Shown here: piece after piece, positions 4,834 through 28,147 of the stretch
Layout of the letters: each line of letters opens with the position of its first letter
Position numbering within the stretch: position 1 is the stretch's first letter
Virus record (IMG/VR): IMGVR_UViG_3300031566_000192
Location: 1-35,258 of that record
Origin: a virus
DNA length: 35,258 bases
Reading direction: 5' to 3' (one strand)
Notes under the pieces: model-generated
Told to the model about the DNA's origin: nothing
The model's input: only the letters and a program-made list of their open reading frames with translations
Databases searched by the model: none
Translations under genes and position numbers: made by a program

Positions 4834-5418
4834 ATGAAAGGAAAAAAACTCACAGTCAAGCAAGAAAACTTTATTCGGGAATATCTCGTTGACCTTAACG
4901 CAACACAAGCGGCGATTCGTGCCGGGTATTCCGCAAAGACCGCAAATGTCATTGGCCCGGAAAACCTTGCGAAACCTTGCATTGCGGAACGCATCAAACA
5001 AGCAATTGACGCACGACAAGAGAAAACCGAAATCACCGCCGAGAGAGTATTGCAAGAACTCGCAAACATTGCCTTTTCGAACGTTGAGGACTTCTTTGAG
5101 TCGGTGTCATACTCCGATGAGGAGGACGAGGAACTTGCGGGCCAGGGGCGAAAATATCATCAATTGAAATCGGACTTTTTAAAATCACCCAGGATTGCGG
5201 CCGTTCAATCAATCGAACCCGGTGCATATGGTGCAAAATTAAAGATGGCCGACAAGATGAAAGCACTCGAAATGATCTCAAGGCATTTGGGAATTTTCAA
5301 CGCCGACACTTCACAAAAACCGGAGAACAACAACGTCATTGATCTCTCGGGAATATCGTCGGAAAAACTCCGACAACTTCAAAAGGTTTGGAACGACAAT
5401 GACGATTCCGAGCAATGA
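4834..5418 (+). CDS. terS: Terminase small subunit (Terminase_2 / P27-type)
   Basis: The N-terminus LTVKQENFIREYLVDLNATQAAIRAGYSAKTANVIGPENL is the classic small-terminase HTH signature. The gene sits directly upstream of terL. Confidence 0.88.
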   Translation: MKGKKLTVKQENFIREYLVDLNATQAAIRAGYSAKTANVIGPENLAKPCIAERIKQAIDARQEKTEITAERVLQELANIAFSNVEDFFESVSYSDEEDEELAGQGRKYHQLKSDFLKSPRIAAVQSIEPGAYGAKLKMADKMKALEMISRHLGIFNADTSQKPENNNVIDLSGISSEKLRQLQKVWNDNDDSEQ

Positions 5419-6910
5419 TCAAATCAAAATCGAGCTGGCCAAAAGGCATTTGCTCGATTTCACACGACACACGAAAAAGAATTACAAAGTAAACTGGCAC
5501 CACGAACAATTGTGCGAGAAACTCGAGGCATTTGCCAGGGGCGAAATTCCCCGACTCATGGTTTTCATGCCACCGAGACATGGAAAGTCCGAACTCGGTT
5601 CAAGGCGATTGCCGGCCTATATACTCGGACAAAACCCGAACGCCGAAATCATTGCGTGTTCGTACTCGGCCGACCTGGCAACCAAGATGAATCGTGACGT
5701 GCAAAGAATCATCGACTCTCCGGAATACCGAGAGATTTTCCCGGACACTCAACTCAACACAAAGAACGTTGTTTCAAGTGCAAAGGGATCATATATTCGA
5801 AACGCAACCGAGTTTGAAGTCGTTGGACATTCCGGAGGATATCGTTGTGCCGGAACCGGAGGGGCCGTCACGGGAACCGGGGGAACTCATTTGATTGTTG
5901 ACGATCCGATCAAGAACATGGAGGACGCAAACTCCGAAACAATCCGTCAAAAGGTTTGGGATTGGTACACGTCAACACTATACACGAGACTTGAATCAAC
6001 CATTGAGGAAAACGGGAAAGAGTCCGAGGACGAGGGTTCGATCCTGGTCATTCTCACACGATGGCACGAGGACGATCTTGCCGGTCGATTGCTCGCCCTG
6101 GCCCAATCCGATCCGGGGGCCGATCAATGGGAAATCCTTGAATTGCCGGCAATCAAAGAAAACACAACAAACCCGGACGATCCAAGGAAAGTCGGCGAGG
6201 CCTTATGGCCTGGAAAATATCCGATCAAGAGATTGAACAAAATCAAAGCGTCCGTCGGTTCAAAGGTTTGGTCAAGTTTGTTCCAACAACAACCGACTCC
6301 GGGCGAGGGTGCGATCTTCTTGAGACAATGGTTGCAAAATTTTTATTTTACATTACCGGAAACCAGGTGCGACTTGAAACTCATTTCGTGCGACCTCACA
6401 TTCAAAGACACAAAGACCGCCGATTTCGTTGTCATGAGTGTGTATGCGAAATATGGTTCCCAGGTGTTTTTGATCGACAAAATAAAAAAGAGAATGGACT
6501 TCACAACAACCTTGACCGAGTTCAAGGCACTCGTTGAAAAGCACTCGGACGCAACGATCAAACTCGTTGAGGAAAAAGCAAACGGGGCGGCCTTGATCTC
6601 AATGCTTTCAAAGTCAATCCCTGGAATTGTTCCGGTGATTCCAAAAGAATCAAAGACCGCACGAGCACACGCCGTCACGCCTTTTTACGAGGCCGGGAAT
6701 GTTTTCTATCCTCATGAATCAATTGCACCTTGGATTGGTGATCATATTGTCGAAATGTCGGCGTTCCCTTTTGGACGCAATGACGACTCGGTTGACGCCG
6801 AAACTCAAGCAATCTCGAGATTCATGATCGGCCAGGCCGACGCATGGACAACCGAGGACGGCGAGGAGTACAATGAAAATGAAACACTAATTGAACAAAT
6901 GGAATGGTGA
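5399..6910 (+). CDS. terL: Terminase large subunit
   Basis: Walker A-like MPPRHGKSE and Walker B-like HLIVDDP, with a C-terminal nuclease-like acidic region. ATG 5399 is preferred over the track TTG 5339, which would overlap terS by 80 nt. Confidence 0.9.
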   Translation: MTIPSNDQIKIELAKRHLLDFTRHTKKNYKVNWHHEQLCEKLEAFARGEIPRLMVFMPPRHGKSELGSRRLPAYILGQNPNAEIIACSYSADLATKMNRDVQRIIDSPEYREIFPDTQLNTKNVVSSAKGSYIRNATEFEVVGHSGGYRCAGTGGAVTGTGGTHLIVDDPIKNMEDANSETIRQKVWDWYTSTLYTRLESTIEENGKESEDEGSILVILTRWHEDDLAGRLLALAQSDPGADQWEILELPAIKENTTNPDDPRKVGEALWPGKYPIKRLNKIKASVGSKVWSSLFQQQPTPGEGAIFLRQWLQNFYFTLPETRCDLKLISCDLTFKDTKTADFVVMSVYAKYGSQVFLIDKIKKRMDFTTTLTEFKALVEKHSDATIKLVEEKANGAALISMLSKSIPGIVPVIPKESKTARAHAVTPFYEAGNVFYPHESIAPWIGDHIVEMSAFPFGRNDDSVDAETQAISRFMIGQADAWTTEDGEEYNENETLIEQMEW

Positions 6911-6914
6911 GAAT

Positions 6915-9119
6915 ATGGAAAACCAAGAACATGAATTGAGAGAGGGACAAGGAACCGAGTTTGAAATCAATCAAACGCCGGTGAAAGTTGTCGAGATCGG
7001 ATCAAGCGGAACGGAAATATTTGCCGGATATCTTGCCGAGGAGTATTTGCAAGAATTGCAAGGAACCGCCGCCGCCGACATATATGACAAAATGAGACGT
7101 TCCGATCCGAAAGTCAAAATGATTCTTTCCGCAATGAAAAATCCGATCAAGGGTGCAACGTGGGAAATCAATGAAAAAGGCGACGAGACTCGAGAGGGTG
7201 CAATTCAAAAGGCTTTCATCGAACATATACTTTTCAATGATCTTGGAAAGACCTGGAAATCATTTTTGCACGAGGCTTTGTCTTGCATTGATTTCGGGTA
7301 TTCACTTTTCGAGGTAACATATTCGGCGGTTTTGAATCATGAAAAGTGGGGATCATATAACGGAATTAGATCACTTGCTTTCCGCTCACAAAGAACGATT
7401 GAAAAATGGGAAATCAATCGTCACGGGGAATTGAAATCAGTATATCAACAAGCCGACGGCGATCAACAAAAAACAATATATATTCCGGCGAAATATCTCG
7501 TTCACTTTGCACTCGAGAGAGAGGGCGACAACTTTGAGGGAATCTCGATCTTGCGTCCGGCATATGGCCCTTGGTTGCGAAAGAATACATTTTTGAAACT
7601 TATTGCGGCCGGGATTGAAAAATATGCGATCCCAATTCCAATCCTGGAAATTCCGGAGGGGAAACAAGGTTCGGCCGAATACAAGACGGCACTCAATGCA
7701 ATGAAACGATATGTTTCGCACCAATGCAATTATTTGACGGTTCCGTTCGGTTGGAAACTCACATTGAACTCGAATCCTTTTGATGCCTCAAAGATTCGTG
7801 AAGTAATTGACGCCGAAAATGTTGAGATCGTGAACGCCGCACTTGCAAATTTCCTTGAACTTGGTCAATCCGGTTCGGGATCATATGCACTTTCGTTTGA
7901 CCTTTCCGACTTTTTCCTCGGAGGTCTTGAATATGTTGCGGAACAAATTGCGGAAACGCTCAACGCTCAATTGATTCCAAACTTGATTGCATTGAATTTC
8001 CCGGATCAAAAATGCCTGGTTGAACTCTCGGCGTCCGGAATCTCGGATCGTGCCGGCGAGGAGTTCTCAAAAATCATCATGAATCTTGTGAGTTCACAAA
8101 CATTGACTCCGGACGATCGACTTGAGGACAACTTGAGAAAACGTTTCGGGTTGCCGGAACGAGACGAAACAACGTCGAGGAAAGTTGAGGCACCTCAACC
8201 AACGCCCGGGCCTGGCCCTCAACAACTTGCGGAAAAAGGTGACGAGACTTTAAAAAAAAAGTCAAGTGATCCCGTGAAAGCAAAGATCGAGGAGGATGCC
8301 GAAAAGCTCAAATTGATCATGCAAAGAAACTTGAAAGCAATCGCCGAGGACGTTTCAAAACAAGCGGCGAAACATTGGAAAGATTCATCGGAGGACGAAC
8401 GTGTTGCACCTCCAAAGGAATATGACATCAAGGCCAGTGTTGAAAAATATCGAAAAGAAGTCACCGAGGAACTTGCCAGGCAATACAACACGGCCGTTGA
8501 ACAAGTCCGAGGAGAAAACCCTTTTTTCAAAAATATCAAATTGAGTGAAACGGCGACTCAAATCAAACTTGCCGAAAAAGACAAATTGAACAAAAAAGGA
8601 CTCATTCGAATCAACGGAATCGTTGATTCATTGGTTGACATCAACACGGGCGAAATCATCAAGACAAATGATTTGCAATACACACAAAGTGCGGACAAGG
8701 TTGCCGACGCCCTGGAAATTCAAACAAATATGATTGAACAAACAAATAAAAAGATCGACGGCCCAATGACGTCATCGGGTGCACTCTTGAACGCATCGAC
8801 GATGATCAACATTGCAAGGAAAGATTTTTTTGGTGAAATGATCAAGACGGGAGAGGTTGAGTCATTCACTTGGATCAACTCCGATCCGATCACCGACATT
8901 TGCAAAGGGTTGAACGGGATCACTTTGAAAGCAGACGATCCGGCCGTCCAAACGTACTGGCCGCCGTTGCATTTCAATTGCAAAACATACGTGACCGCAA
9001 ACACAAGCAAGACACAAGGGAACCCGGAACCACAAAACGGATTCGTTCCGACAAAGTCCCAGGAATCATCAATCAATTTGGCCGAGGCCTGGCCCGGACA
9101 TTGTCCGGATCATTGTTGA
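6915..9119 (+). CDS. Portal protein (Mu gp29/DUF935-like) fused to a Mu F / SPP1 gp7 minor-head domain
   Basis: The N-terminal ~440 aa (DIYDKMRRSDPKVKMILSAMKNPIKGATWEI...) is portal-like. A linker PQPTPGPGPQQ follows. The C-terminus carries DPITDICKGLNG...WPPLHFNCKTYV, the MuF/gp7 signature. ATG 6915 follows the terL stop. Confidence 0.8.
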   Translation: MENQEHELREGQGTEFEINQTPVKVVEIGSSGTEIFAGYLAEEYLQELQGTAAADIYDKMRRSDPKVKMILSAMKNPIKGATWEINEKGDETREGAIQKAFIEHILFNDLGKTWKSFLHEALSCIDFGYSLFEVTYSAVLNHEKWGSYNGIRSLAFRSQRTIEKWEINRHGELKSVYQQADGDQQKTIYIPAKYLVHFALEREGDNFEGISILRPAYGPWLRKNTFLKLIAAGIEKYAIPIPILEIPEGKQGSAEYKTALNAMKRYVSHQCNYLTVPFGWKLTLNSNPFDASKIREVIDAENVEIVNAALANFLELGQSGSGSYALSFDLSDFFLGGLEYVAEQIAETLNAQLIPNLIALNFPDQKCLVELSASGISDRAGEEFSKIIMNLVSSQTLTPDDRLEDNLRKRFGLPERDETTSRKVEAPQPTPGPGPQQLAEKGDETLKKKSSDPVKAKIEEDAEKLKLIMQRNLKAIAEDVSKQAAKHWKDSSEDERVAPPKEYDIKASVEKYRKEVTEELARQYNTAVEQVRGENPFFKNIKLSETATQIKLAEKDKLNKKGLIRINGIVDSLVDINTGEIIKTNDLQYTQSADKVADALEIQTNMIEQTNKKIDGPMTSSGALLNASTMINIARKDFFGEMIKTGEVESFTWINSDPITDICKGLNGITLKADDPAVQTYWPPLHFNCKTYVTANTSKTQGNPEPQNGFVPTKSQESSINLAEAWPGHCPDHC

Positions 9120-9165: not shown

Positions 9166-10272
9166 ATGAAACATTTTAGGACGACACCAATCAAACTCGC
9201 CGAGGGAAATCCGGTTGAGGGAATTTCAAGTCAAGTTCAACTCATGAGAACTTGCACCTTTTTTCACAAGCAATATGGAAAGGTTGACATCACTCGACAA
9301 TTGTTTGACGAAATGATCGAAAACCACAAGAACAACGTTCGAGGCATCGAGGTCATGATTGACTATTCACACGACTCCGAAAGAGAGGCCGCCGGTTGGA
9401 TCAAAGACTTGCATGTTCGTGAGGTTCAACTTGCCGAGGGGAACGAGGAACTTGGAATCGAACCAAAGATTGAACATCAACTTTGGGCCGACGTTGATTG
9501 GACTCCAAAAGGAACAAAAACACTTTCGGACAAAGAGTTTGCATATTTGAGTGCGGACTTTGATCCCGATTATAAAGACAATGAAAATCCCACTCATTCG
9601 GTTGGTGCCGTTCTCTTGGGTGCTGGCCTCACAAACCGCCCAGTTATAAAGAGAATGAATCCGGCTATACAATTGAGTGAATTTTCGGAAACCAATATCA
9701 AGGAGAAAAACATCATGAACATTGAGGACATGAAAAAAGAACTTGATGCCAAAAACATCAAGTTAAGTGAAACCGAGGAAAAACTCGGCGACATGGAAAA
9801 AAATCTCTCCGATTCCGAGGTGAAACTTGCTCAAATTGATGAATTGATGAGGGAACTTGGTGTTTCTTCAATCGAGGAACTCATGAGTAAAATTCAAGCA
9901 ATGTCGAAAGACAATGTTGAGCTTGCCGAGGAAAAAGAGAAAACCGAAAAAGAAAGCAAGTTGAATGTTTTACTTAGTGAGGGGAAAATTTCCCAGGCAC
10001 AAAAGGAAAAAGCAATGACACTTGAAAAAAGTTCTTTTGAGGGATTCATTTCACTTGCTGAAATGAACGAAAAAGTTGTCAAGCTTGACGAAAGCGGTTC
10101 GGGAAAAACTCCAAAAGAGTCAATCGAAATCGACGACGTTGAGGACAAAGTTCTTGAACTTGCCGAGGCGAAAGCAAAGGCCGACAAGATCGACATGACC
10201 GATGCAATTTCAATCGTTCTTTCCGAGGACAAAGACCTTGCATCAAAATATTATAAACTTGGTGAGGAATAG
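9166..10272 (+). CDS. Head maturation protease / scaffold fusion (Mu gpI-like N-terminus, acidic coiled-coil C-terminus)
   Basis: N-terminal DYSHDSEREAAGWIKDL...AVLLGAGLTNRPVIKRM resembles Mu-like prophage protein I. The C-terminal half is E/K-rich coiled coil. Confidence 0.7.
   Translation: MKHFRTTPIKLAEGNPVEGISSQVQLMRTCTFFHKQYGKVDITRQLFDEMIENHKNNVRGIEVMIDYSHDSEREAAGWIKDLHVREVQLAEGNEELGIEPKIEHQLWADVDWTPKGTKTLSDKEFAYLSADFDPDYKDNENPTHSVGAVLLGAGLTNRPVIKRMNPAIQLSEFSETNIKEKNIMNIEDMKKELDAKNIKLSETEEKLGDMEKNLSDSEVKLAQIDELMRELGVSSIEELMSKIQAMSKDNVELAEEKEKTEKESKLNVLLSEGKISQAQKEKAMTLEKSSFEGFISLAEMNEKVVKLDESGSGKTPKESIEIDDVEDKVLELAEAKAKADKIDMTDAISIVLSEDKDLASKYYKLGEE
9715..10272 (+). CDS. Candidate nested scaffold protein from an in-frame internal start
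   Basis: AAGGAG at 9700-9705 is followed 9 nt later by the in-frame ATG at 9715 (MNIEDMKKELD...). This is analogous to Mu I/Z and lambda C/Nu3. Confidence 0.45.
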   Translation: MNIEDMKKELDAKNIKLSETEEKLGDMEKNLSDSEVKLAQIDELMRELGVSSIEELMSKIQAMSKDNVELAEEKEKTEKESKLNVLLSEGKISQAQKEKAMTLEKSSFEGFISLAEMNEKVVKLDESGSGKTPKESIEIDDVEDKVLELAEAKAKADKIDMTDAISIVLSEDKDLASKYYKLGEE

Positions 10273-10283
10273 GGAGGACGAAA

Positions 10284-10649
10284 ATGAGTAGTTATATTCA
10301 ACCACAAGTCAAAACTTTTTGTGCCGACGCCGATCTTGCACAATACACGTTTGTGAAACTTGGTTCAAGTGACAAGCATGTTGCAAATTCGGGTGCCGGA
10401 GAAAAGTCGTTCGGTGTCAATATGACAAAGGACGTGAAATCGGGTGACGCATGTGAAATTGCACACCTTGGGGGCGGTGCTTTGATTAAGCTTGCCGGAA
10501 CAATAACGAGAGGTGACTCGGTCAAGTCAAACGCAAATGGAGAGGGTGTCGTTGCGGCGGCGGTGGAATTTTCAAGTGCGGTTGCAATGGAATCGGGTGT
10601 TGCCGGGGACGTGATTAGTGTCATTCTTGACGCTCACGTTGCATTTTAG
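10284..10649 (+). CDS. DUF2190-type head decoration/cement protein
   Basis: A 121-aa Gly/Ala-rich beta protein (…GDACEIAHLGGGALIKLAGTITRGDSV…) located between the scaffold and capsid genes. RBS GGGAGG. Confidence 0.65.
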   Translation: MSSYIQPQVKTFCADADLAQYTFVKLGSSDKHVANSGAGEKSFGVNMTKDVKSGDACEIAHLGGGALIKLAGTITRGDSVKSNANGEGVVAAAVEFSSAVAMESGVAGDVISVILDAHVAF

Positions 10650-10660
10650 GGAGGATTGAA

Positions 10661-11596
10661 ATGAGTCAAATGAAAGCTATCGTTGATAAATTATTGACAA
10701 ATGTTTCATCAATGTACGTTCCGGAGGGTTATATTTCCGAGGCAATTTTGCCGAACTTACAAGTGAAACAAAAAACTGGAAAAATTGGAAAGTACGGTCT
10801 TAATCATTTAAGAATCGTTAACGCAAAAATGGGAGGCCGAGGACGTGCCGCAAGATTTGAACCAATCGTTCGTGACTCGGATTTATATTCGATCGAAAGT
10901 CATGGACTTGAGGGACTTGTGACCGAGGACGACTATGACAACTCGGAGGAACCGTTCGACGCTGAAAAGGATGAAACTCTTGGGTTGACAACAACTCTTT
11001 GGACGGCGAAAGAATATGCAATTGCAAGCGTTCTTTTCAACACGGCAATCATCACGCAAAACATCACACTTGCGGCGGCGACTGACAAATTCAGTGACTA
11101 TGTGAACTCAAAGCCACTTGAAAATTTCAGAGACGGTCAAAATGTAATTCTTGAAGGATGCGGAAAGATGCCGAACCGTGCGATTTGTTCTCAAAAGGTT
11201 TTCAATACTTTAAAGTATCACCCGGCGATTTTAAGATCACTTGGGTTTGCGGACAACCGTGCCGGAACTTTAAAAATTGCCGAGGTTGCACACGCAATGG
11301 GTGTTGAAATGCTTCACATTGGTGACGCCGCTTTCAACAACGCAAAGCTTGGACAATCTGACAACCTTGAGCAAATTTGGGGCGATTCAGTTCTCATGTA
11401 TTATGCACCAAAGACGGCGGCAAAATACCAACAATCACTTGGATATTACATGACAATGAAAAAAAGAGGCCCGAGACGTGTTTACAAGTTTACTGTAAAC
11501 AACCCACCGAACTCAAAGGGAATCATCGTTCAAGACGACTATCAATTCGCTTTGACAAACGTGAAATGTGCATACTTAATTAAAAACTGTTTATAA
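10661..11596 (+). CDS. Major capsid protein (HK97 fold, probably lambda gpE-like family)
   Basis: 311 aa, positioned after the protease/scaffold and decoration genes. It has a strong RBS and is followed by the strongest terminator in the genome. Confidence 0.8.
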   Translation: MSQMKAIVDKLLTNVSSMYVPEGYISEAILPNLQVKQKTGKIGKYGLNHLRIVNAKMGGRGRAARFEPIVRDSDLYSIESHGLEGLVTEDDYDNSEEPFDAEKDETLGLTTTLWTAKEYAIASVLFNTAIITQNITLAAATDKFSDYVNSKPLENFRDGQNVILEGCGKMPNRAICSQKVFNTLKYHPAILRSLGFADNRAGTLKIAEVAHAMGVEMLHIGDAAFNNAKLGQSDNLEQIWGDSVLMYYAPKTAAKYQQSLGYYMTMKKRGPRRVYKFTVNNPPNSKGIIVQDDYQFALTNVKCAYLIKNCL

Positions 11597-15010: not shown

Positions 15011-15508
15011 ATGGAACTTGAACAACTAATTCCCGAACGTGCAACGATCGTCAAGACGATTGAGGGCGAGGGCGAAACAAGAGAACTTGAATTGAACTTT
15101 CGACCTTTCAACCTTGAGGATGAATCTTGGTTGAAACGTGCATATGGTGACGATCTCAAAAAACATTTTGAGCAAATGGACATGGAGGTCATTTCAAGAG
15201 TTGCTTTTCACCAATTGGAACTTGACTCAAAACGTGAGGTCATGAAATTAAAATTTTACGACATGGACGAGGATTCGGGCGAGGAGAGTGAAGTCTCAAA
15301 GACTGGCCCTCAAAAGATTCGTCAAATAATTGCCGGGCCGTCGGCACAAATGGAACTTTTGACCGCATTGTTGAAAACGAGAGGATTCTCAATGCCGATT
15401 CTCGAGGAACTTGGTGTTCACCTGGAAAATGAGGTTGAAAAAAAATCGCCGGGAAAGCAGAAAAAGGCCCGCAAAATGAAGTCAATTGGGCCGAGGTCTT
15501 TGACGTAA
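15011..15508 (+). CDS. Tail assembly chaperone (G-like, zero-frame product)
   Basis: ATG 15011 follows AAAGGAG. The protein is acidic, lies immediately upstream of the tape measure, and contains the slip site. Confidence 0.8.
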   Translation: MELEQLIPERATIVKTIEGEGETRELELNFRPFNLEDESWLKRAYGDDLKKHFEQMDMEVISRVAFHQLELDSKREVMKLKFYDMDEDSGEESEVSKTGPQKIRQIIAGPSAQMELLTALLKTRGFSMPILEELGVHLENEVEKKSPGKQKKARKMKSIGPRSLT

Positions 15509-15792
15509 TTGCGTCGGAGTACGGTTGGACTTTTGACGAGTTCAAGAAACTCACTCTCCGAACACTTCAAAGTTGTTTGGACATGATTGAGATTCGAACT
15601 CACAATGAATACGCAAAACAAGCGGCGTTGCATGGAGCGAAAATCGACTTCAAGCACGTCAAAAGAAAATTCAAAGAACTATCCGACGAGCAAAAAATCA
15701 TGATGGCAAATGTTTCTCGTGCCGCCGCTCAAAGGAAAGTTCAAGAAAAAGCCGAACAAGCAAGGAAAAAGAATGGCATCAACAACAAGTGA
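15011..15792 (+). CDS. Tail assembly chaperone GT-like fusion made by a -1 frameshift at 15439-15445
   Basis: The -1 frame is closed by TGA at 15436-15438 and opens exactly at the A8 run. It then reads KKIAGKAEKGPQNEVNWAEVFDVIASEYGWTFDEFKKLTLRTL... through to the stop at 15790-15792. Confidence 0.7.
15439..15445 (+). promoter_or_regulatory. Programmed -1 ribosomal frameshift heptamer A_AAA_AAA
   Basis: The zero-frame codons are GAA AAA AAA TCG. See the GT feature. Confidence 0.72.
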
Positions 15793-18622
15793 ACTCATAG
15801 TCAAGATCGGTGCAAACGCCGATCAATTTGCGTCCGAACTCGAAAAGGTTGGATCAACGACAAAGAATCTTGAAAAAAATCTTGCGACGGTTGCGAAAAT
15901 ATCCGGTGCCGCATTTGCCGCCGGAACCGCAACGATTGCCGCCGCAACAATTGCGGCCGGAAACTTTGAGGACAAGTTCACAAACGTTGTCACACTTTTG
16001 GACAAAGGTTCATTTGCCTCGAAAAGTCTTGAACAAGGAATTGAGGGACTCAAAAAAGGAGTCATTGAACTTGGTCAAGAAACGGGAGCGTCATTCGAGG
16101 ATTTGAACAAAGCATTGTTCGACTTGATTTCATCGGGTGTCCCGGCCGAGGAGGCCATTGACACTTTGAGAGTCACAACTCAACTTGCGGCCGCCGGTGC
16201 AACGGACACGGCAACGGCCGTCCAGGCATTGACCGCAACCATGACATCATTCGGCGAAAGTGCCGGAACCGCCGCCGAGATTTCCGAAAAGTTTTTCACC
16301 GCTCAAAAGTTTGGTGTCACAACGGTCGGTGATCTTGCAAGTGAGTTCTCAAAGGTTGCCGGAACCGCAAATTCACTTGGGATTTCGTTTGACGAGGCCC
16401 TCGCATCACTTTCGGCATTGACCGCCGACGGTGCGAAACCAACAAACGTCGCCGCAACACAATTGAAAGCAACGTTGACAAGTTTGATCAACGTTCAAAA
16501 GAACTTGTCGAGTGAATCGCAAGCAATACAAGAGGCCTTGAGTCTCCAAAATTTAAAGTCAAAGGGACTTGTCGGAGTTCTCGACGAGTTGAAAGTCGCA
16601 ACCGGAGGGAACGTCGTTGAAATGCAACGATTGTTCGGGAGTGCCGAGGGACTTGCCGTTGCACTTTCATTGACCGGAGCACAATCGGAACTCGTCAAAA
16701 AACAAATTGCCGAAATGGCCGACGAACAAAAACGTGCCGCCGTATTTGCCGACGCACTTGCGGTCAAACAAGAAAATTCAAAAAAAGCATTTGAGAGATT
16801 TTCGAGGGTGATCGAAACCGCCGCAATTGTACTTGGTGAACAATTCGCACCAATCGTTGCGAAAGCCGCCGAGTTGTTGGGAGAGTTTTTCAAAATACTT
16901 GTAAACAATCCAGTTCTCGCAAAAACCGCCGCCCTTGTCATTGGACTTGGAACGGCACTCGCCGGAATTGCCGCCGCCGGTGCACTTGCCGCAACCGCAT
17001 TTTTGAAAATCAGAGCGGCAATGGTTGCCTTGAGTATATCAACAAAAGTTCTTTCAATTGGAATCAAAGGTCTTGTCGGAGCGACGGGATTTGGATTGTT
17101 GTTGATTGTAATTTCCGAAATATATGCAAATTGGGAAACAATATGGCCGGCCGTTGTGAGAATATTCTCGGCAACGGTCAACGCACTTGCAAACCTTGGT
17201 GCCGGTCTTGGAAAAATCCTCAAAGGAATATTCACTTTTGACGGTGACGCAATTTCCGAGGGAATGGACATGGCCAAAAAAGCGATTTCCGATGGCCTTG
17301 ACGACATAATTGACGCCGTCAAAGGCAAGGAGGACGCAAAGGTTGTCGTTCCAATCACGGCGAAAGTTGATGAAAGCCAGGTTCAAGGCGAGGTTGACAA
17401 GCTTTCAAAAGCCGGTGAAAAAGGGAGTGTTTCGGTTGGTGCCGGTGCAACGGTTGCGAAAGGCGACTCGGGCCAGGCCGCAAAGGATGATTCACTTGCA
17501 AAATTGAAAGAAAATGAATCGGCAAAAACAAAAGCATTGAACGAGGAACAAAAAAAGAGAATCGCACAAAACAAAGCCGCACTTGATTTGATCCAAAATC
17601 AAAACGCCGGTGCAACACAACAAGAGCTTGATTTCATCAAAAGAAAAAATGAACTTGCACTTGCCGAGCAAGCGGCGGCACAAGAAAAAAATCAAGCGGT
17701 TCGTGATAGTGAACTTGAACTCATTGCCGCTCAACGTGCGGTGCTACTTGAGGAGGAACGTGTTTTTCTTGAGGAAAAACGAGCAATTCAAGCCGAGGAT
17801 CGTGAAACAAAGGCCGCATTGAACGAGGAACTCAAAGCACTTTCCGAATCGGAACGTGCCGAACTCAACCAACAAGAACTTGATCAAATTCAAGCTCAAA
17901 TTCTCTCCAAAAGAGAGGTTGAGGACTCGGAGGCGAAAAGAAAACTCGACTTTGAAATCAAAAGACGAAACCAATATTTGAAAGATGAAAAACAATTCGG
18001 AAAAACATCGGCCGAGATCAACAAGTTTCTTTCAAGTGAAAGCGTTCAACTTGCAAAACAAAGTGCAAACGAACTTGTTGGACTGGCCCAATCTAAAAAT
18101 AAAACGCTCGCAAGTATAGGCAAGGCCGCAAGCGTGACACAAATTGCGATAGATACTGCCACAAATGCGGCGTCAATTTTCGCAAAACTCAACGCACTTT
18201 TTCCAATCCTGGCACCTGGAATTGGTTTCGCCGGTGCGGCGGCAATCACCGCATTTGGTGCCGAAAAAACCGCAAACGTTCTCGCCGCAAATGAGGGGGG
18301 ACTTGTCCCGAGGAACCTTGGGACGCCCGGGAAAGACTCAATTCCTGCAAGTTTGACACCTGGAGAGTTGGTTGTCCCCGAAAAGAATTTTGACGAGGTC
18401 GTCAACTCGGTTGCGTCCCAACGTTCCGGAGGTTCATCGTCGAGCGATTCAAATTCCGCACTTGTTGGACTTCTTTCCTCGATTGATCAAAAATTAAATA
18501 AACTGGAAAGTCCGGTCACAATCAACGGTGACGTTCTTGACTCCGAACCTTTTGTTGATAACATCATGGAAAAAATTCGGGATGCAAGGGACTTTCGAAA
18601 CGCAACACTTGAGGGGCTTTAA
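15773..18622 (+). CDS. Tape measure protein
   Basis: 949 aa from ATG 15773. It has Ala-rich hydrophobic segments and long coiled coils, plus the C-terminal GGLVPRNLGTPGKDSIPASLTPGELVVP motif. Its position after G/GT fits. Confidence 0.9.
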   Translation: MASTTSELIVKIGANADQFASELEKVGSTTKNLEKNLATVAKISGAAFAAGTATIAAATIAAGNFEDKFTNVVTLLDKGSFASKSLEQGIEGLKKGVIELGQETGASFEDLNKALFDLISSGVPAEEAIDTLRVTTQLAAAGATDTATAVQALTATMTSFGESAGTAAEISEKFFTAQKFGVTTVGDLASEFSKVAGTANSLGISFDEALASLSALTADGAKPTNVAATQLKATLTSLINVQKNLSSESQAIQEALSLQNLKSKGLVGVLDELKVATGGNVVEMQRLFGSAEGLAVALSLTGAQSELVKKQIAEMADEQKRAAVFADALAVKQENSKKAFERFSRVIETAAIVLGEQFAPIVAKAAELLGEFFKILVNNPVLAKTAALVIGLGTALAGIAAAGALAATAFLKIRAAMVALSISTKVLSIGIKGLVGATGFGLLLIVISEIYANWETIWPAVVRIFSATVNALANLGAGLGKILKGIFTFDGDAISEGMDMAKKAISDGLDDIIDAVKGKEDAKVVVPITAKVDESQVQGEVDKLSKAGEKGSVSVGAGATVAKGDSGQAAKDDSLAKLKENESAKTKALNEEQKKRIAQNKAALDLIQNQNAGATQQELDFIKRKNELALAEQAAAQEKNQAVRDSELELIAAQRAVLLEEERVFLEEKRAIQAEDRETKAALNEELKALSESERAELNQQELDQIQAQILSKREVEDSEAKRKLDFEIKRRNQYLKDEKQFGKTSAEINKFLSSESVQLAKQSANELVGLAQSKNKTLASIGKAASVTQIAIDTATNAASIFAKLNALFPILAPGIGFAGAAAITAFGAEKTANVLAANEGGLVPRNLGTPGKDSIPASLTPGELVVPEKNFDEVVNSVASQRSGGSSSSDSNSALVGLLSSIDQKLNKLESPVTINGDVLDSEPFVDNIMEKIRDARDFRNATLEGL

Positions 18623-26664: not shown

Positions 26665-26978
26665 TTTTTCACGCACTCGATTGAGTATGCAACAAAGGCG
26701 ACACCGCCGTTTGATTTGATTGTTTCCAGGAACTCAACTTGACCTTTTGACGGTTTTCCTTTTGAATCTTTTTTCACCTCAATGGCCAGGAACCGACCGT
26801 CCGGCAAGATTCCGAGAATGTCAACGGGATCGCCGCAAACTTTTTCCCATTTATTTTTTTTACGAAAACCGCCCTCGATTTTTTTGTCAAACACCGAACC
26901 GTTGTTGTTCCTCCATGCCGACACTTTTTTGAACATCAAGAATTGCAGAATCGAGTTTTGAACCTCGGTTTCCGACAT
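26649..26978 (-). CDS. VRR-NUC domain nuclease
   Basis: GDPVDILGILPDGRFLAIEVKKDSKGKPSKGQVEFLETIKSNGGVAFVAYS is the PD-(D/E)xK VRR-NUC core. The start is taken at MSETEVQNSILQFL (ATG 26978). Confidence 0.78.
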   Translation of the reverse strand: MSETEVQNSILQFLMFKKVSAWRNNNGSVFDKKIEGGFRKKNKWEKVCGDPVDILGILPDGRFLAIEVKKDSKGKPSKGQVEFLETIKSNGGVAFVAYSIECVKNHLQI

Positions 26979-27576
26979 TGAATAGATCGTTTTGTTCAAA
27001 ATAAAACCTCCGAAAAATTTCCTCACAAGCGAGGCGATCCGACTTTGCATTGTGGTGATCGAGTTCAATACTAAAATGATCGGCGAGGTTTTTCAACTTT
27101 GCACTTTGCATTTTCAAGGCCCGTGCAATTGTCACGGTTGAAATGATTTTTTTCTCGTCAAAATACTTGTAAAAATCAAAATATTTGTCCTGGAAAGCAA
27201 AATCCATTTTGATCATTGCAAAATCAAAGTGTGCGTGAATATGAGTCTTGGTGACATCATTGAAAGACGACTCACTTGCATGACAAAGAAACGCAAATTT
27301 GCGATCTTTTGGCAACCAATCAATCAATTTTTGCAAACTCTCCGGTCTTTCCGGAAAGTTGTCGGCGGTTTTTTTTGAAATCCGATGAATCCGTCTCGCC
27401 TCCTCGTCCCAATGATAGGGACGAGATTTGAGTTCAAGTTCGTCGATTGTTTCCAGGGTTTCCGGGTGCAATTTTCCGAACGATCCGGTGATCCAACACG
27501 CACCATGAACATCAAGTCCGGTTGTTTCGAGATCGCACGAAATTATTGCGTCAATATCACCTGGAATTTCGATCAA
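26887..27576 (-). CDS. DEDDh 3-prime to 5-prime exonuclease (DnaQ-like)
   Basis: ExoI is IISCDLETTGLD and ExoIII is HHNAKSDRLACEEIF. TTG 27576 lies 7 nt after GGAGG and one base after the upstream stop. The track ATG 27621 would overlap the upstream gene by 44 nt. Confidence 0.78.
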   Translation of the reverse strand: MIEIPGDIDAIISCDLETTGLDVHGACWITGSFGKLHPETLETIDELELKSRPYHWDEEARRIHRISKKTADNFPERPESLQKLIDWLPKDRKFAFLCHASESSFNDVTKTHIHAHFDFAMIKMDFAFQDKYFDFYKYFDEKKIISTVTIARALKMQSAKLKNLADHFSIELDHHNAKSDRLACEEIFRRFYFEQNDLFNVGNRGSKLDSAILDVQKSVGMEEQQRFGV

Positions 27577-27577
27577 C

Positions 27578-28147
27578 TTAATACCTCCAAAAAAAAACGA
27601 TTCGTTTCCATTTCGGGACATACGTTTTTTTCACGGCCTCAATTGTGTCGTTTCCGTCGATCAACTTCAAATGACAATATTTGATTATTTTATTGAGTTG
27701 ATAGCAAATTGAAAAATGTCGTCTCTTTGTTTCGTTGAAATCGTGATCAAATCCGAGTTTGTGTCCCCACTCGTGACAAATATTTCCCTCGACACCAATG
27801 ATTGACATTGACCAAAAGAATTTGCGATTGATCCATTGTCGAATTGTGTTCCCATATGTATATCCGACAACGTTCGAAAATGGTTTCGGGTTGAAAATTG
27901 TGAGATCAATGTCGGCCTCATTGTCAATTTCCGGTTGTAATGTTTCCGCACCACTCATGAAGTGTTCGAAAATCTCTTGATTTGTTTTGTGTTTCCAATT
28001 TGAAGTTTCGCCCGAAAAGTCCGCTCGCAAAAACTCTTGTCGAAACATTTCCGAATTGCAAATCAACTCGAGATTGACTCTCGCCTCCTCGAGTCTCACG
28101 AGTTCTTTTGGGGTGAATTGTTGGTGATCAATTTTAAATTTTAGCAT
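27578..28147 (-). CDS. Small metallopeptidase-like protein with the metzincin motif HExxHxxGxxH
   Basis: HEWGHKLGFDH is encoded at 27743-27775 (verified codon by codon). 189 aa. Confidence 0.65.
   Translation of the reverse strand: MLKFKIDHQQFTPKELVRLEEARVNLELICNSEMFRQEFLRADFSGETSNWKHKTNQEIFEHFMSGAETLQPEIDNEADIDLTIFNPKPFSNVVGYTYGNTIRQWINRKFFWSMSIIGVEGNICHEWGHKLGFDHDFNETKRRHFSICYQLNKIIKYCHLKLIDGNDTIEAVKKTYVPKWKRIVFFWRY

Follow-up and report, generated by a model that had tools for sequence, protein, structure and literature searches.

The stretch analysed here comprises positions 1 to 35,258 of the IMG/VR virus record IMGVR_UViG_3300031566_000192 and is referred to below, at its full length of 35,258 nucleotides (nt), as the window. 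It carries a head module typical of tailed phages on the plus strand, and one gene of this module codes for a fusion of a portal protein with a MuF-like head-morphogenesis protein (portal–MuF; the coordinates of all features are collected in Table 1). Within this gene, at the joint of the two parts, lies an uninterrupted run of nine adenines (A9), one of only two homopolymer runs of at least nine nucleotides in the 35-kb window. Comparative sequence analysis provides good support for a slippage site at this position. We consider it probable that programmed slippage of some kind operates on the run, and a single gene would then give rise to two head proteins by way of a conserved A9 slippage site.

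The two parts of the fusion could be assigned with different ease. For the portal half, the profile search gave 134.7 bits against PF06074, where the curated cut-off is 23.9. In a Foldseek comparison, the N-terminal part of an AlphaFold model, which was built on 23 homologues, resembles solved stand-alone portals of 400-445 amino acids (aa), including those of G20c, P23-45 and Mu, with E-values of 1e-8 to 1e-16. The C-terminal half shows a weak match to Phage_Mu_F (PF04233) at aa 626-693 (9.5e-5, 23.6 bits), which stays below the cut-off of 29.6 and recurs as an equally weak match in 17 of 23 relatives. It also matches the minor head protein family phrog_115 (E-value 1.7e-4), and several homologues have been annotated by JGI as 'SPP1 gp7 family'. 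Searches of this half against solved structures by sequence gave no match; in the AlphaFold model it is confident from aa 451 on. The open reading frame (ORF) may start with the ATG at 6915, which is preceded by GGTGAG, or alternatively with a TTG at 6891.

Between the two parts, the model is disordered (predicted local distance difference test, pLDDT, below 50 at aa 395-450), and a long, confident helix begins at aa 453. Lys447-449, which are encoded by the A-run, are thus the last residues of the inter-domain linker as modelled. In the protein alignment, the linker region is hypervariable except for two islands, xLAE and KKKSSDPV. The linker holds a conserved L-A-E motif, and the A-run is found at its 3′ end.

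Starting at 8250, the zero-frame codons are TTA AAA AAA AAG TCA AGT GAT, with TTA at 8250-8252 and AAG at 8259-8261. After the site, the -1 frame reads GTC AAG TGA and the +1 frame reads AGT CAA GTG ATC CCG TGA, so that both alternative frames close almost at once. A shift into the -1 frame, or an mRNA with ten A's (A10), is predicted to yield a product of 451 aa and 50.7 kDa which ends with ...LKKKVK, while the predicted +1 product has 453 aa and ends with ...LKKSQVIP. An earlier, sequence-only reading of this DNA had pointed to the A9 run, the heptamer A_AAA_AAG, the -1 stop and an AGGTGA element 12 nt upstream of the heptamer, and all of these coordinates hold when checked on the sequence. 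The +1 stop had been missed. The same reading had placed the slip site at the portal/MuF boundary, which is in agreement with the limits of the Pfam matches and with the end of the AlphaFold linker at Lys447-449. However, AAAAAAG occurs in 23 copies on the plus strand of the window, and the background chance of a -1 stop within two codons is 0.20 in these genes. A comparative test was thus required, since the window sequence alone cannot demonstrate that the site is beyond chance and relatives are needed for this purpose.

A protein search returned 425 homologues, nearly all of them metagenomic and most with the same fused architecture. With regard to cultured relatives, megablast found nothing, and the best tblastn hit had about 31% identity and covered the portal half only. 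We selected 14 close relatives by protein similarity alone and compared them at the DNA level; together with the window these are 15 independently assembled sequences with 64-80% aa identity. The sequence-only reading had named the loss of the A-run or of the nearby -1 stop in relatives as a refutation, and the site withstood this check. In all 15 sequences the site reads NNA AAA AAA AAG (A9), except for a single case of AAA AAA AAA (A10), and a -1 stop follows within 1-2 codons in 14 of the 15, compared to a background of 0.20. In the +1 frame, 14 sequences have a stop within 5 codons (background 0.29). Three different codon solutions provide the -1 stop: TGA (from AGT or AAT followed by GAT), TAG (TCT followed by AGT) and TAA (TCT followed by AAA).

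The conservation extends to positions which the protein leaves free. The codon preceding the run is TTA, TCA or GTA and thus codes for Leu, Ser or Val, while its third base is A in all 15 cases; TTA accounts for only 2% of the Leu codons in the portal–MuF gene of the window. An invariant third base is found in only 7 of the 687 ungapped codon columns, and three of these are the consecutive codons 446-448. At codon 449, AAG is retained in 14 of the 15 sequences, whereas 13 of the 14 other columns with an invariant Lys mix AAA and AAG. When the gene is scanned with a sliding segment of five codons, the slip site is the top peak of synonymous conservation (0.95 observed, 0.51 expected), and 6 of the 15 highest-ranking segments for synonymous identity are located there. 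Other synonymous sites are near saturation in this set, with an identity of 0.485 where 0.387 is expected. By this comparison, the length of the run is conserved among the relatives beyond what the protein requires.

The analysis was extended to 79 fused genes (non-redundant at 90% identity), in which the stretch separating the portal profile match from that of MuF, 9% of the total length, was taken as the junction zone. Of these genes, 27 have an A9 or A10 run in the zone, distributed over at least 8 separate lineages of the portal-domain tree, and in the lineages with the run both alternative frames again close quickly in most cases. The length distribution of A-runs in the zone is bimodal, with 121 runs of 4, 60 of 5, 36 of 6, 5 of 7, 3 of 8, 19 of 9 and 8 of 10 nucleotides; longer runs are absent. 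In the remainder of the domain-covered sequence of the 79 genes, the distribution decays monotonically and ends at 7. Correspondingly, three consecutive Lys codons are encoded by an uninterrupted A-run of at least nine in 22 of 24 cases inside the zone and in none of 11 cases outside, where each is broken by AAG. The heptamer A_AAA_AAG is in frame in only about four lineages, while about nine have A9 or A10 runs which end in AAC, AAT, AGT, AGC, ACT or GCC. The feature shared by the lineages with the run is thus its length of 9-10 and not the AAG heptamer. What can be read directly from the sequences is that the run and the stops in both frames are conserved at the level of nucleotides, that such runs are confined to the junction, and that the site coincides with the domain boundary.

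A sister subclade of the clade to which the window belongs, known from three DNA sequences (L003, L004 and L006), has no A-run. Its members carry an in-frame G_GGA_AAG at the junction instead (CAG or CCG followed by GGA AAG), with -1 stops 1-5 codons further on. Relative to its frequency elsewhere (5 in 49,178 codons), GGGAAAG is about 9 times as common in the junction zone, with 5 in 5,278 codons. The linker of the three sequences also contains an extra insert of about 50 aa (NGAQV...FP).

The position of the run can be related to relatives in which the two functions have not been joined. At about 20 loci, portal and MuF are encoded by separate, often overlapping genes with ATGGCTAA or GTGGCTAA start/stop junctions. 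There, the portal ends 10-20 residues past a conserved (T)LAE...(R)LAE motif, and MuF starts with a basic stretch such as MARKKP, MKKKKV or VAKKKAK (also M-A-R-K-K or M-K-K-K-K). Portal end and MuF start coincide with the site of the run, which in the fused genes therefore lies where the two genes once met; a portal made by slippage would be equivalent to the stand-alone protein. At one split-gene locus (L118), an A9 run starts inside the TAA stop codon of the portal gene (CGT GGC TAA AAA AAA AGC) and encodes the KKK of the MuF N-terminus (GTG GCT AAA AAA AAA GCC). In a related clade, a portal-only ORF of 450 aa (P0041) ends with ...FAEKKQKKKE in the Lys-rich junction; it may represent a genomic variant in run length or a split gene.

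If programmed slippage operates at the A9 run, standard decoding would produce the 734-aa portal–MuF fusion, while slippage would lead to a portal-only protein of about 451-453 aa which ends a few residues past the linker. We tentatively assign the main route to transcription, with a confidence that stays slightly below even. RNA polymerase would stutter on the nine A's, a run of about the length of the RNA-DNA hybrid, and would release mRNAs with 8, 10 or 11 A's (A8, A10, A11), all of which are predicted to stop within 2-5 codons at one of the two TGA codons. Transcriptional slippage is favoured by the conserved extra A on the preceding codon, by the preference for 9-10 over 7-8 A's, by the lineages lacking AAG and by the closure of both frames. 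A7 or A8 would suffice for the heptamer, yet such runs are rare in the zone, and the evidence thus favours the length of the run over the heptamer. A closed +1 frame is required only where the transcripts differ in length, and thus also points to transcriptional slippage. A -1 ribosomal shift on A_AAA_AAG would end in ...LKKKVK as well, yielding the same product, and probably contributes a few percent. Of the probability which we assign to slippage, the larger part falls to transcription as the leading process, and a smaller but substantial part to the ribosome. We infer the occurrence and the efficiency of slippage, and the importance of a mixture of portal and portal–MuF for the dodecamer, from these patterns. 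The sequence-only reading had proposed the tau/gamma logic of dnaX, in which slippage makes the short product and standard decoding the long one, and this is the interpretation best supported by the comparative data. Equally well supported is its further remark that an A9 run can act through transcriptional slippage.

Several points weigh against this interpretation. About 45 of the 79 fused genes (about 57%) have no slip motif of any kind at the junction, and the portal-only product is thus not essential to the fused design. The Lys-rich and A-rich stretch is ancestral and not invented for slippage, as the A9 run of L118 exists without a fusion and hence pre-dates the fusion or is independent of it. 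A probability computed for the close set under independence (sum of log10 p = -22.5) overstates the significance, because the sequences are phylogenetically related. As to the route, the AAG retained at codon 449, the G_GGA_AAG of the sister subclade and a further G_GGA_AAG in the tail-chaperone genes of this phage indicate that ribosomal shifting is available, and it may even be the main route. In particular, the motif of the three sister sequences is non-homopolymeric and can be used by the ribosome only. Finally, the assignment to transcription would depend on the slippage behaviour of the RNA polymerase of the host.

Among the alternatives, a dnaX-type ribosomal -1 frameshift on A_AAA_AAG as the main route holds up best; we regard it as possible, on balance doubtful. 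Two Lys-tRNAs would re-pair from AAA AAG to AAA AAA, after which GTC AAG TGA would be read, and the additional A's upstream would represent a second, tandem A_AAA_AAA heptamer or serve E-site re-pairing. The heptamer is in frame and its AAG is nearly invariant in the close set, and G_GGA_AAG is found at the same junction in the sister subclade, with the zone enrichment described above. The tail-chaperone pair of this phage also carries an in-frame G_GGA_AAG with an open -1 frame (15436-15792), which by its sequence appears to be a canonical frameshift site of the lambda G/GT type and thus suggests that the host supports shifting on XXA_AAG; an A8 run (15438-15445) is located in the same ORF.

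This route leaves unexplained the rarity of A7-A8 compared to A9-A10, the lack of AAG in most lineages and the closed +1 frame. Moreover, stimulatory elements are not conserved. The sequence-only reading had taken AGGTGA for a stimulator comparable to that of dnaX, a proposal which we could not maintain: the element lies in the hypervariable linker, a Shine-Dalgarno (SD)-like motif is absent within 25 nt upstream in 6 of the 15 close sequences, and its position varies in the others. As it is not conserved, AGGTGA is probably not a stimulator. Downstream, RNAalifold predicted 0 pairs for 12 relatives, and the fold of the 84 nt following the site in the window is no better than that of shuffled sequence (z = -0.25). 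A potential GUGAUC/GAUCAU pairing, spotted by eye in some relatives, was rejected as it is missing in others. Upstream of the run, no significant fold which might act as a nascent-RNA hairpin was found in the 15 sequences, and a phage-encoded tRNA-Lys can be discarded for the window, which contains no tRNA genes. Without stimulators, even the best heptamers are weak: A_AAA_AAG and other XXA_AAG motifs shift at about 0.3% in Escherichia coli and at most at about 3.7% in a favourable context (PMC4066793). The stimulators to which dnaX owes its 'high-efficiency' are thus lacking at this site.

A second alternative, which we consider unlikely, is that no recoding takes place. The A-run would be a by-product of a conserved Lys-Lys-Lys motif, the old MuF N-terminus next to L-A-E, in an A-rich genome, and an occasional slip would be harmless. 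Two or three Lys residues are indeed ancestral at the start of stand-alone MuF proteins, L118 encodes KKK with an A9 run, AAA accounts for 45-75% of the Lys codons, and most fused relatives do without a slip site. However, neutral tolerance predicts a drift between AAA and AAG as seen at nearly all other invariant-Lys columns, while the four synonymous sites of the run are fixed in the 15 sequences although other synonymous sites are near saturation. A protein motif cannot explain an invariant third-base A on a codon that varies in its amino acid, and neither the second length mode at 9-10 nor the conserved off-frame stops are predicted.

Under the same alternative, portal and MuF would be separated, if at all, by a prohead protease of the Mu gpI type at conserved L-x-E motifs. 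[LF][AS]E motifs flank the junction throughout the family, and the gene for a Mu gpI-like protease follows directly. In the window, [LFI]-[AS]-E motifs are found at the portal/MuF junction (QLAE, about 8226-8237), in the middle of the MuF part (IKLSE...IKLAE, about 8535-8580) and near its C-terminus (INLAE, about 9075-9090); they occur family-wide, including the tails of stand-alone portals (TLAEKIRLAE). Their resemblance to the L/I-x-E sites of prohead proteases suggests processing by the neighbouring gpI-like protease. Proteolytic separation does not explain conservation at the nucleotide level; it is plausible and may operate alongside slippage, above all in those relatives that lack a slip site.

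Two further explanations are very improbable. The first is phase variation at the DNA level, where the tract changes its length during replication and heritable states result, one fused and the other portal-only plus a frameshifted remainder. Runs of nine are hypermutable in replication (PMC1088944), and the portal-only ORF of 450 aa in the related clade would fit, but all 15 independent assemblies have an in-frame length, either A9 or A10 with a compensating codon pattern. No frameshifted genomic variant is found among the close relatives, and a phage of this kind would be devoid of MuF, a conserved head protein. The second is some other overlapping signal, such as an internal start for a free MuF protein, a promoter or terminator, or a packaging or bending site; it is just as remote. 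A-rich tracts can enhance initiation; in the window, AGGTGA precedes the run and a GTG lies in frame at 8274. However, none of ATG, GTG and TTG is conserved in frame close to the run, where most relatives use GTA for the Val residue. Conservation is also lacking for the SD-like element, the segment 7800-8800 holds nothing that resembles a promoter or terminator, and the stops in both other frames would be left without explanation.

Several observations concern other genes and sequences. The only other homopolymer run of at least nine in the window, a T9 on the minus strand (27589-27597), lies in the 44-nt overlap (27578-27621) of two minus-strand ORFs. An mRNA shorter by one T would fuse the two, and this could be a second slippage site, an assembly error or a plain overlap; the exonuclease ORF next to the T9 run has no relatives in viral contigs. 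L128 (IMGVR_UViG_2020627001_000041) has an A8 run (GAC TTA AAA AAA ATA CTT AAG TAG) in its MuF part where the frame is lost, about 75 nt from the end of the portal ORF; the data set is old, and an error in sequencing the homopolymer is the probable cause. Relatives L147-L158 from a genome collection are 35-41-kb contigs of metagenome-assembled genomes whose assignments include Saccharibacteria, Oligoflexia, Paceibacterota and Gammaproteobacteria. Most likely these are complete phage genomes which have been mis-binned, and as the bins belong to very different phyla, a host assignment from these contigs is unsafe. Some relatives extend beyond the MuF part, either by an extra C-terminal domain of about 90 aa (P0013, P0025, P0033 and P0022) or by methyltransferase domains PF13489/PF08242 (P0036). 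This is reminiscent of MuF–cargo and MuF–toxin fusions, and the portal would then be tethered to the cargo as well.

Table 1 Features of the window related to the portal–MuF gene and its surroundings. Positions refer to the window; frames are given relative to the portal–MuF reading frame.
Feature	Position	Strand	Remarks
Small terminase gene	4834-5418	+	
Large terminase gene	5339-6910	+	
Portal–MuF fusion gene	6915-9119	+	734 aa, 82.2 kDa; ORF list, translation, Pfam and PHROG matches
Portal domain (Portal_Mu, PF06074), aa 55-412	7077-8150	+	Pfam 6.4e-39
Disordered, hypervariable Pro/Gly-rich linker, aa 395-450	8097-8264	+	AlphaFold pLDDT <50; alignment
SD-like AGGTGA	8237-8242	+	12 nt before heptamer; not conserved
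A9 homopolymer, proposed slippage site	8252-8260	+	third base of Leu446 and Lys447-449
In-frame A_AAA_AAG heptamer (ribosomal -1 slip motif)	8255-8261	+	sequence
MuF-like (SPP1 gp7 / Mu gpF-like) head-morphogenesis part, aa 451-734	8265-9116	+	weak PF04233, PHROG, model
TGA stop in -1 frame	8267-8269	+	would end product of -1 shift or A10 mRNA
TGA stop in +1 frame	8275-8277	+	would end product of A8 or A11 mRNA, 453/454 aa
Mu gpI-like prohead protease/scaffold gene, directly downstream	9166-10272	+	PF10123, 3.7e-25; same neighbour in relatives
Cement protein gene	10284-10649	+	
Major capsid protein gene	10661-11596	+	
Tail assembly chaperone site, in-frame G_GGA_AAG (CCG GGA AAG)	15451-15457		ORF ends at 15508, just upstream of tape measure gene
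Tape measure gene	15710-18622	+	
ORF with RNase_T-type exonuclease	27621..26887	minus	244 aa
ORF with HEWGH motif	28147..27578	minus	189 aa, no Pfam match

Recoding in tailed phages is well established for tail assembly chaperones and a few capsid genes. Full-text literature searches for portal together with frameshift or slippage found no such case, papers describing portal–MuF fusions do not mention slippage, and in the searched text of a 2016 review of recoding the words 'portal' and 'MuF' are absent. If our interpretation is true, a portal gene would for the first time be known to undergo recoding, and the portal itself would serve to set the dose of an internal or ejected head protein. 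It would show how a phage with fused head genes can still make free portal, and would provide a testable handle on the stoichiometry of MuF-type proteins, including the toxin- and cargo-carrying forms which travel with the DNA. Like dnaX, it would also be a natural example of sister lineages which rely interchangeably on slippage by the RNA polymerase or by the ribosome. In more general terms, slippage at A9/A10, or at G_GGA_AAG in one subclade, might be a device which has evolved repeatedly within a large uncultured phage family and undoes the portal–MuF fusion at the level of RNA or ribosome, with a dodecamer that is a set mixture of bare and MuF-tethered subunits (in some relatives, MuF plus a cargo domain); we consider the chances of this to be evenly balanced. 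For annotation, it should be kept in mind that gene callers and annotators will report the fusion only, and that a homopolymer 'error' at this position of an assembly should not be corrected without comment.

The closest likeness is found in dnaX of Thermus thermophilus. As in portal–MuF, an A9 run lies inside the coding region, the long product arises by standard decoding and the other frames close soon. Short products come from mRNAs with non-templated numbers of A's, and ribosomal stimulators are not needed. About 50% of the product is short due to transcriptional slippage, as summarised in PMC1088944; the same source notes that in many bacteria A/T runs begin to be selected against at a length of nine. 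The difference is that a clamp-loader subunit is affected there, while here it is a phage portal–MuF protein, which would be cut at the joint of two formerly separate genes by slippage predicted from sequence. The dnaX gene of E. coli shares with our site the identical in-frame heptamer, a near-immediate -1 stop and a truncated product without the C-terminal domains. However, it needs an SD-like element before the heptamer and a stem-loop after it. Here, neither of the two is conserved, and it is the length of the A9 run that is.

With lambda G/GT, the system shares that a phage morphogenesis gene is concerned and that slippage sets the ratio of two proteins with a common N-terminus. The lambda-type G_GGA_AAG is itself present in the chaperone genes of the phage and at the portal/MuF junction of the sister subclade. 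In lambda, the shift extends the protein, so that the rare product is the longer one, whereas here it would truncate, and the G/GT proteins are not virion components while the portal is. Microbacterium phages (clusters EA3/EA5/EA8 and EB) also combine portal and MuF-like minor capsid functions in one gene (PMC7302621), but these fusions are unrelated in sequence to the one in the window and no slippage has been reported for them. In phages with separate genes for portal (Mu gpH, SPP1 gp6) and MuF (Mu gpF, SPP1 gp7), the stand-alone portal of 400-480 aa corresponds to the predicted slippage product. There, the ratio is set by two genes and translational coupling, while here a single gene and slippage would take this role.

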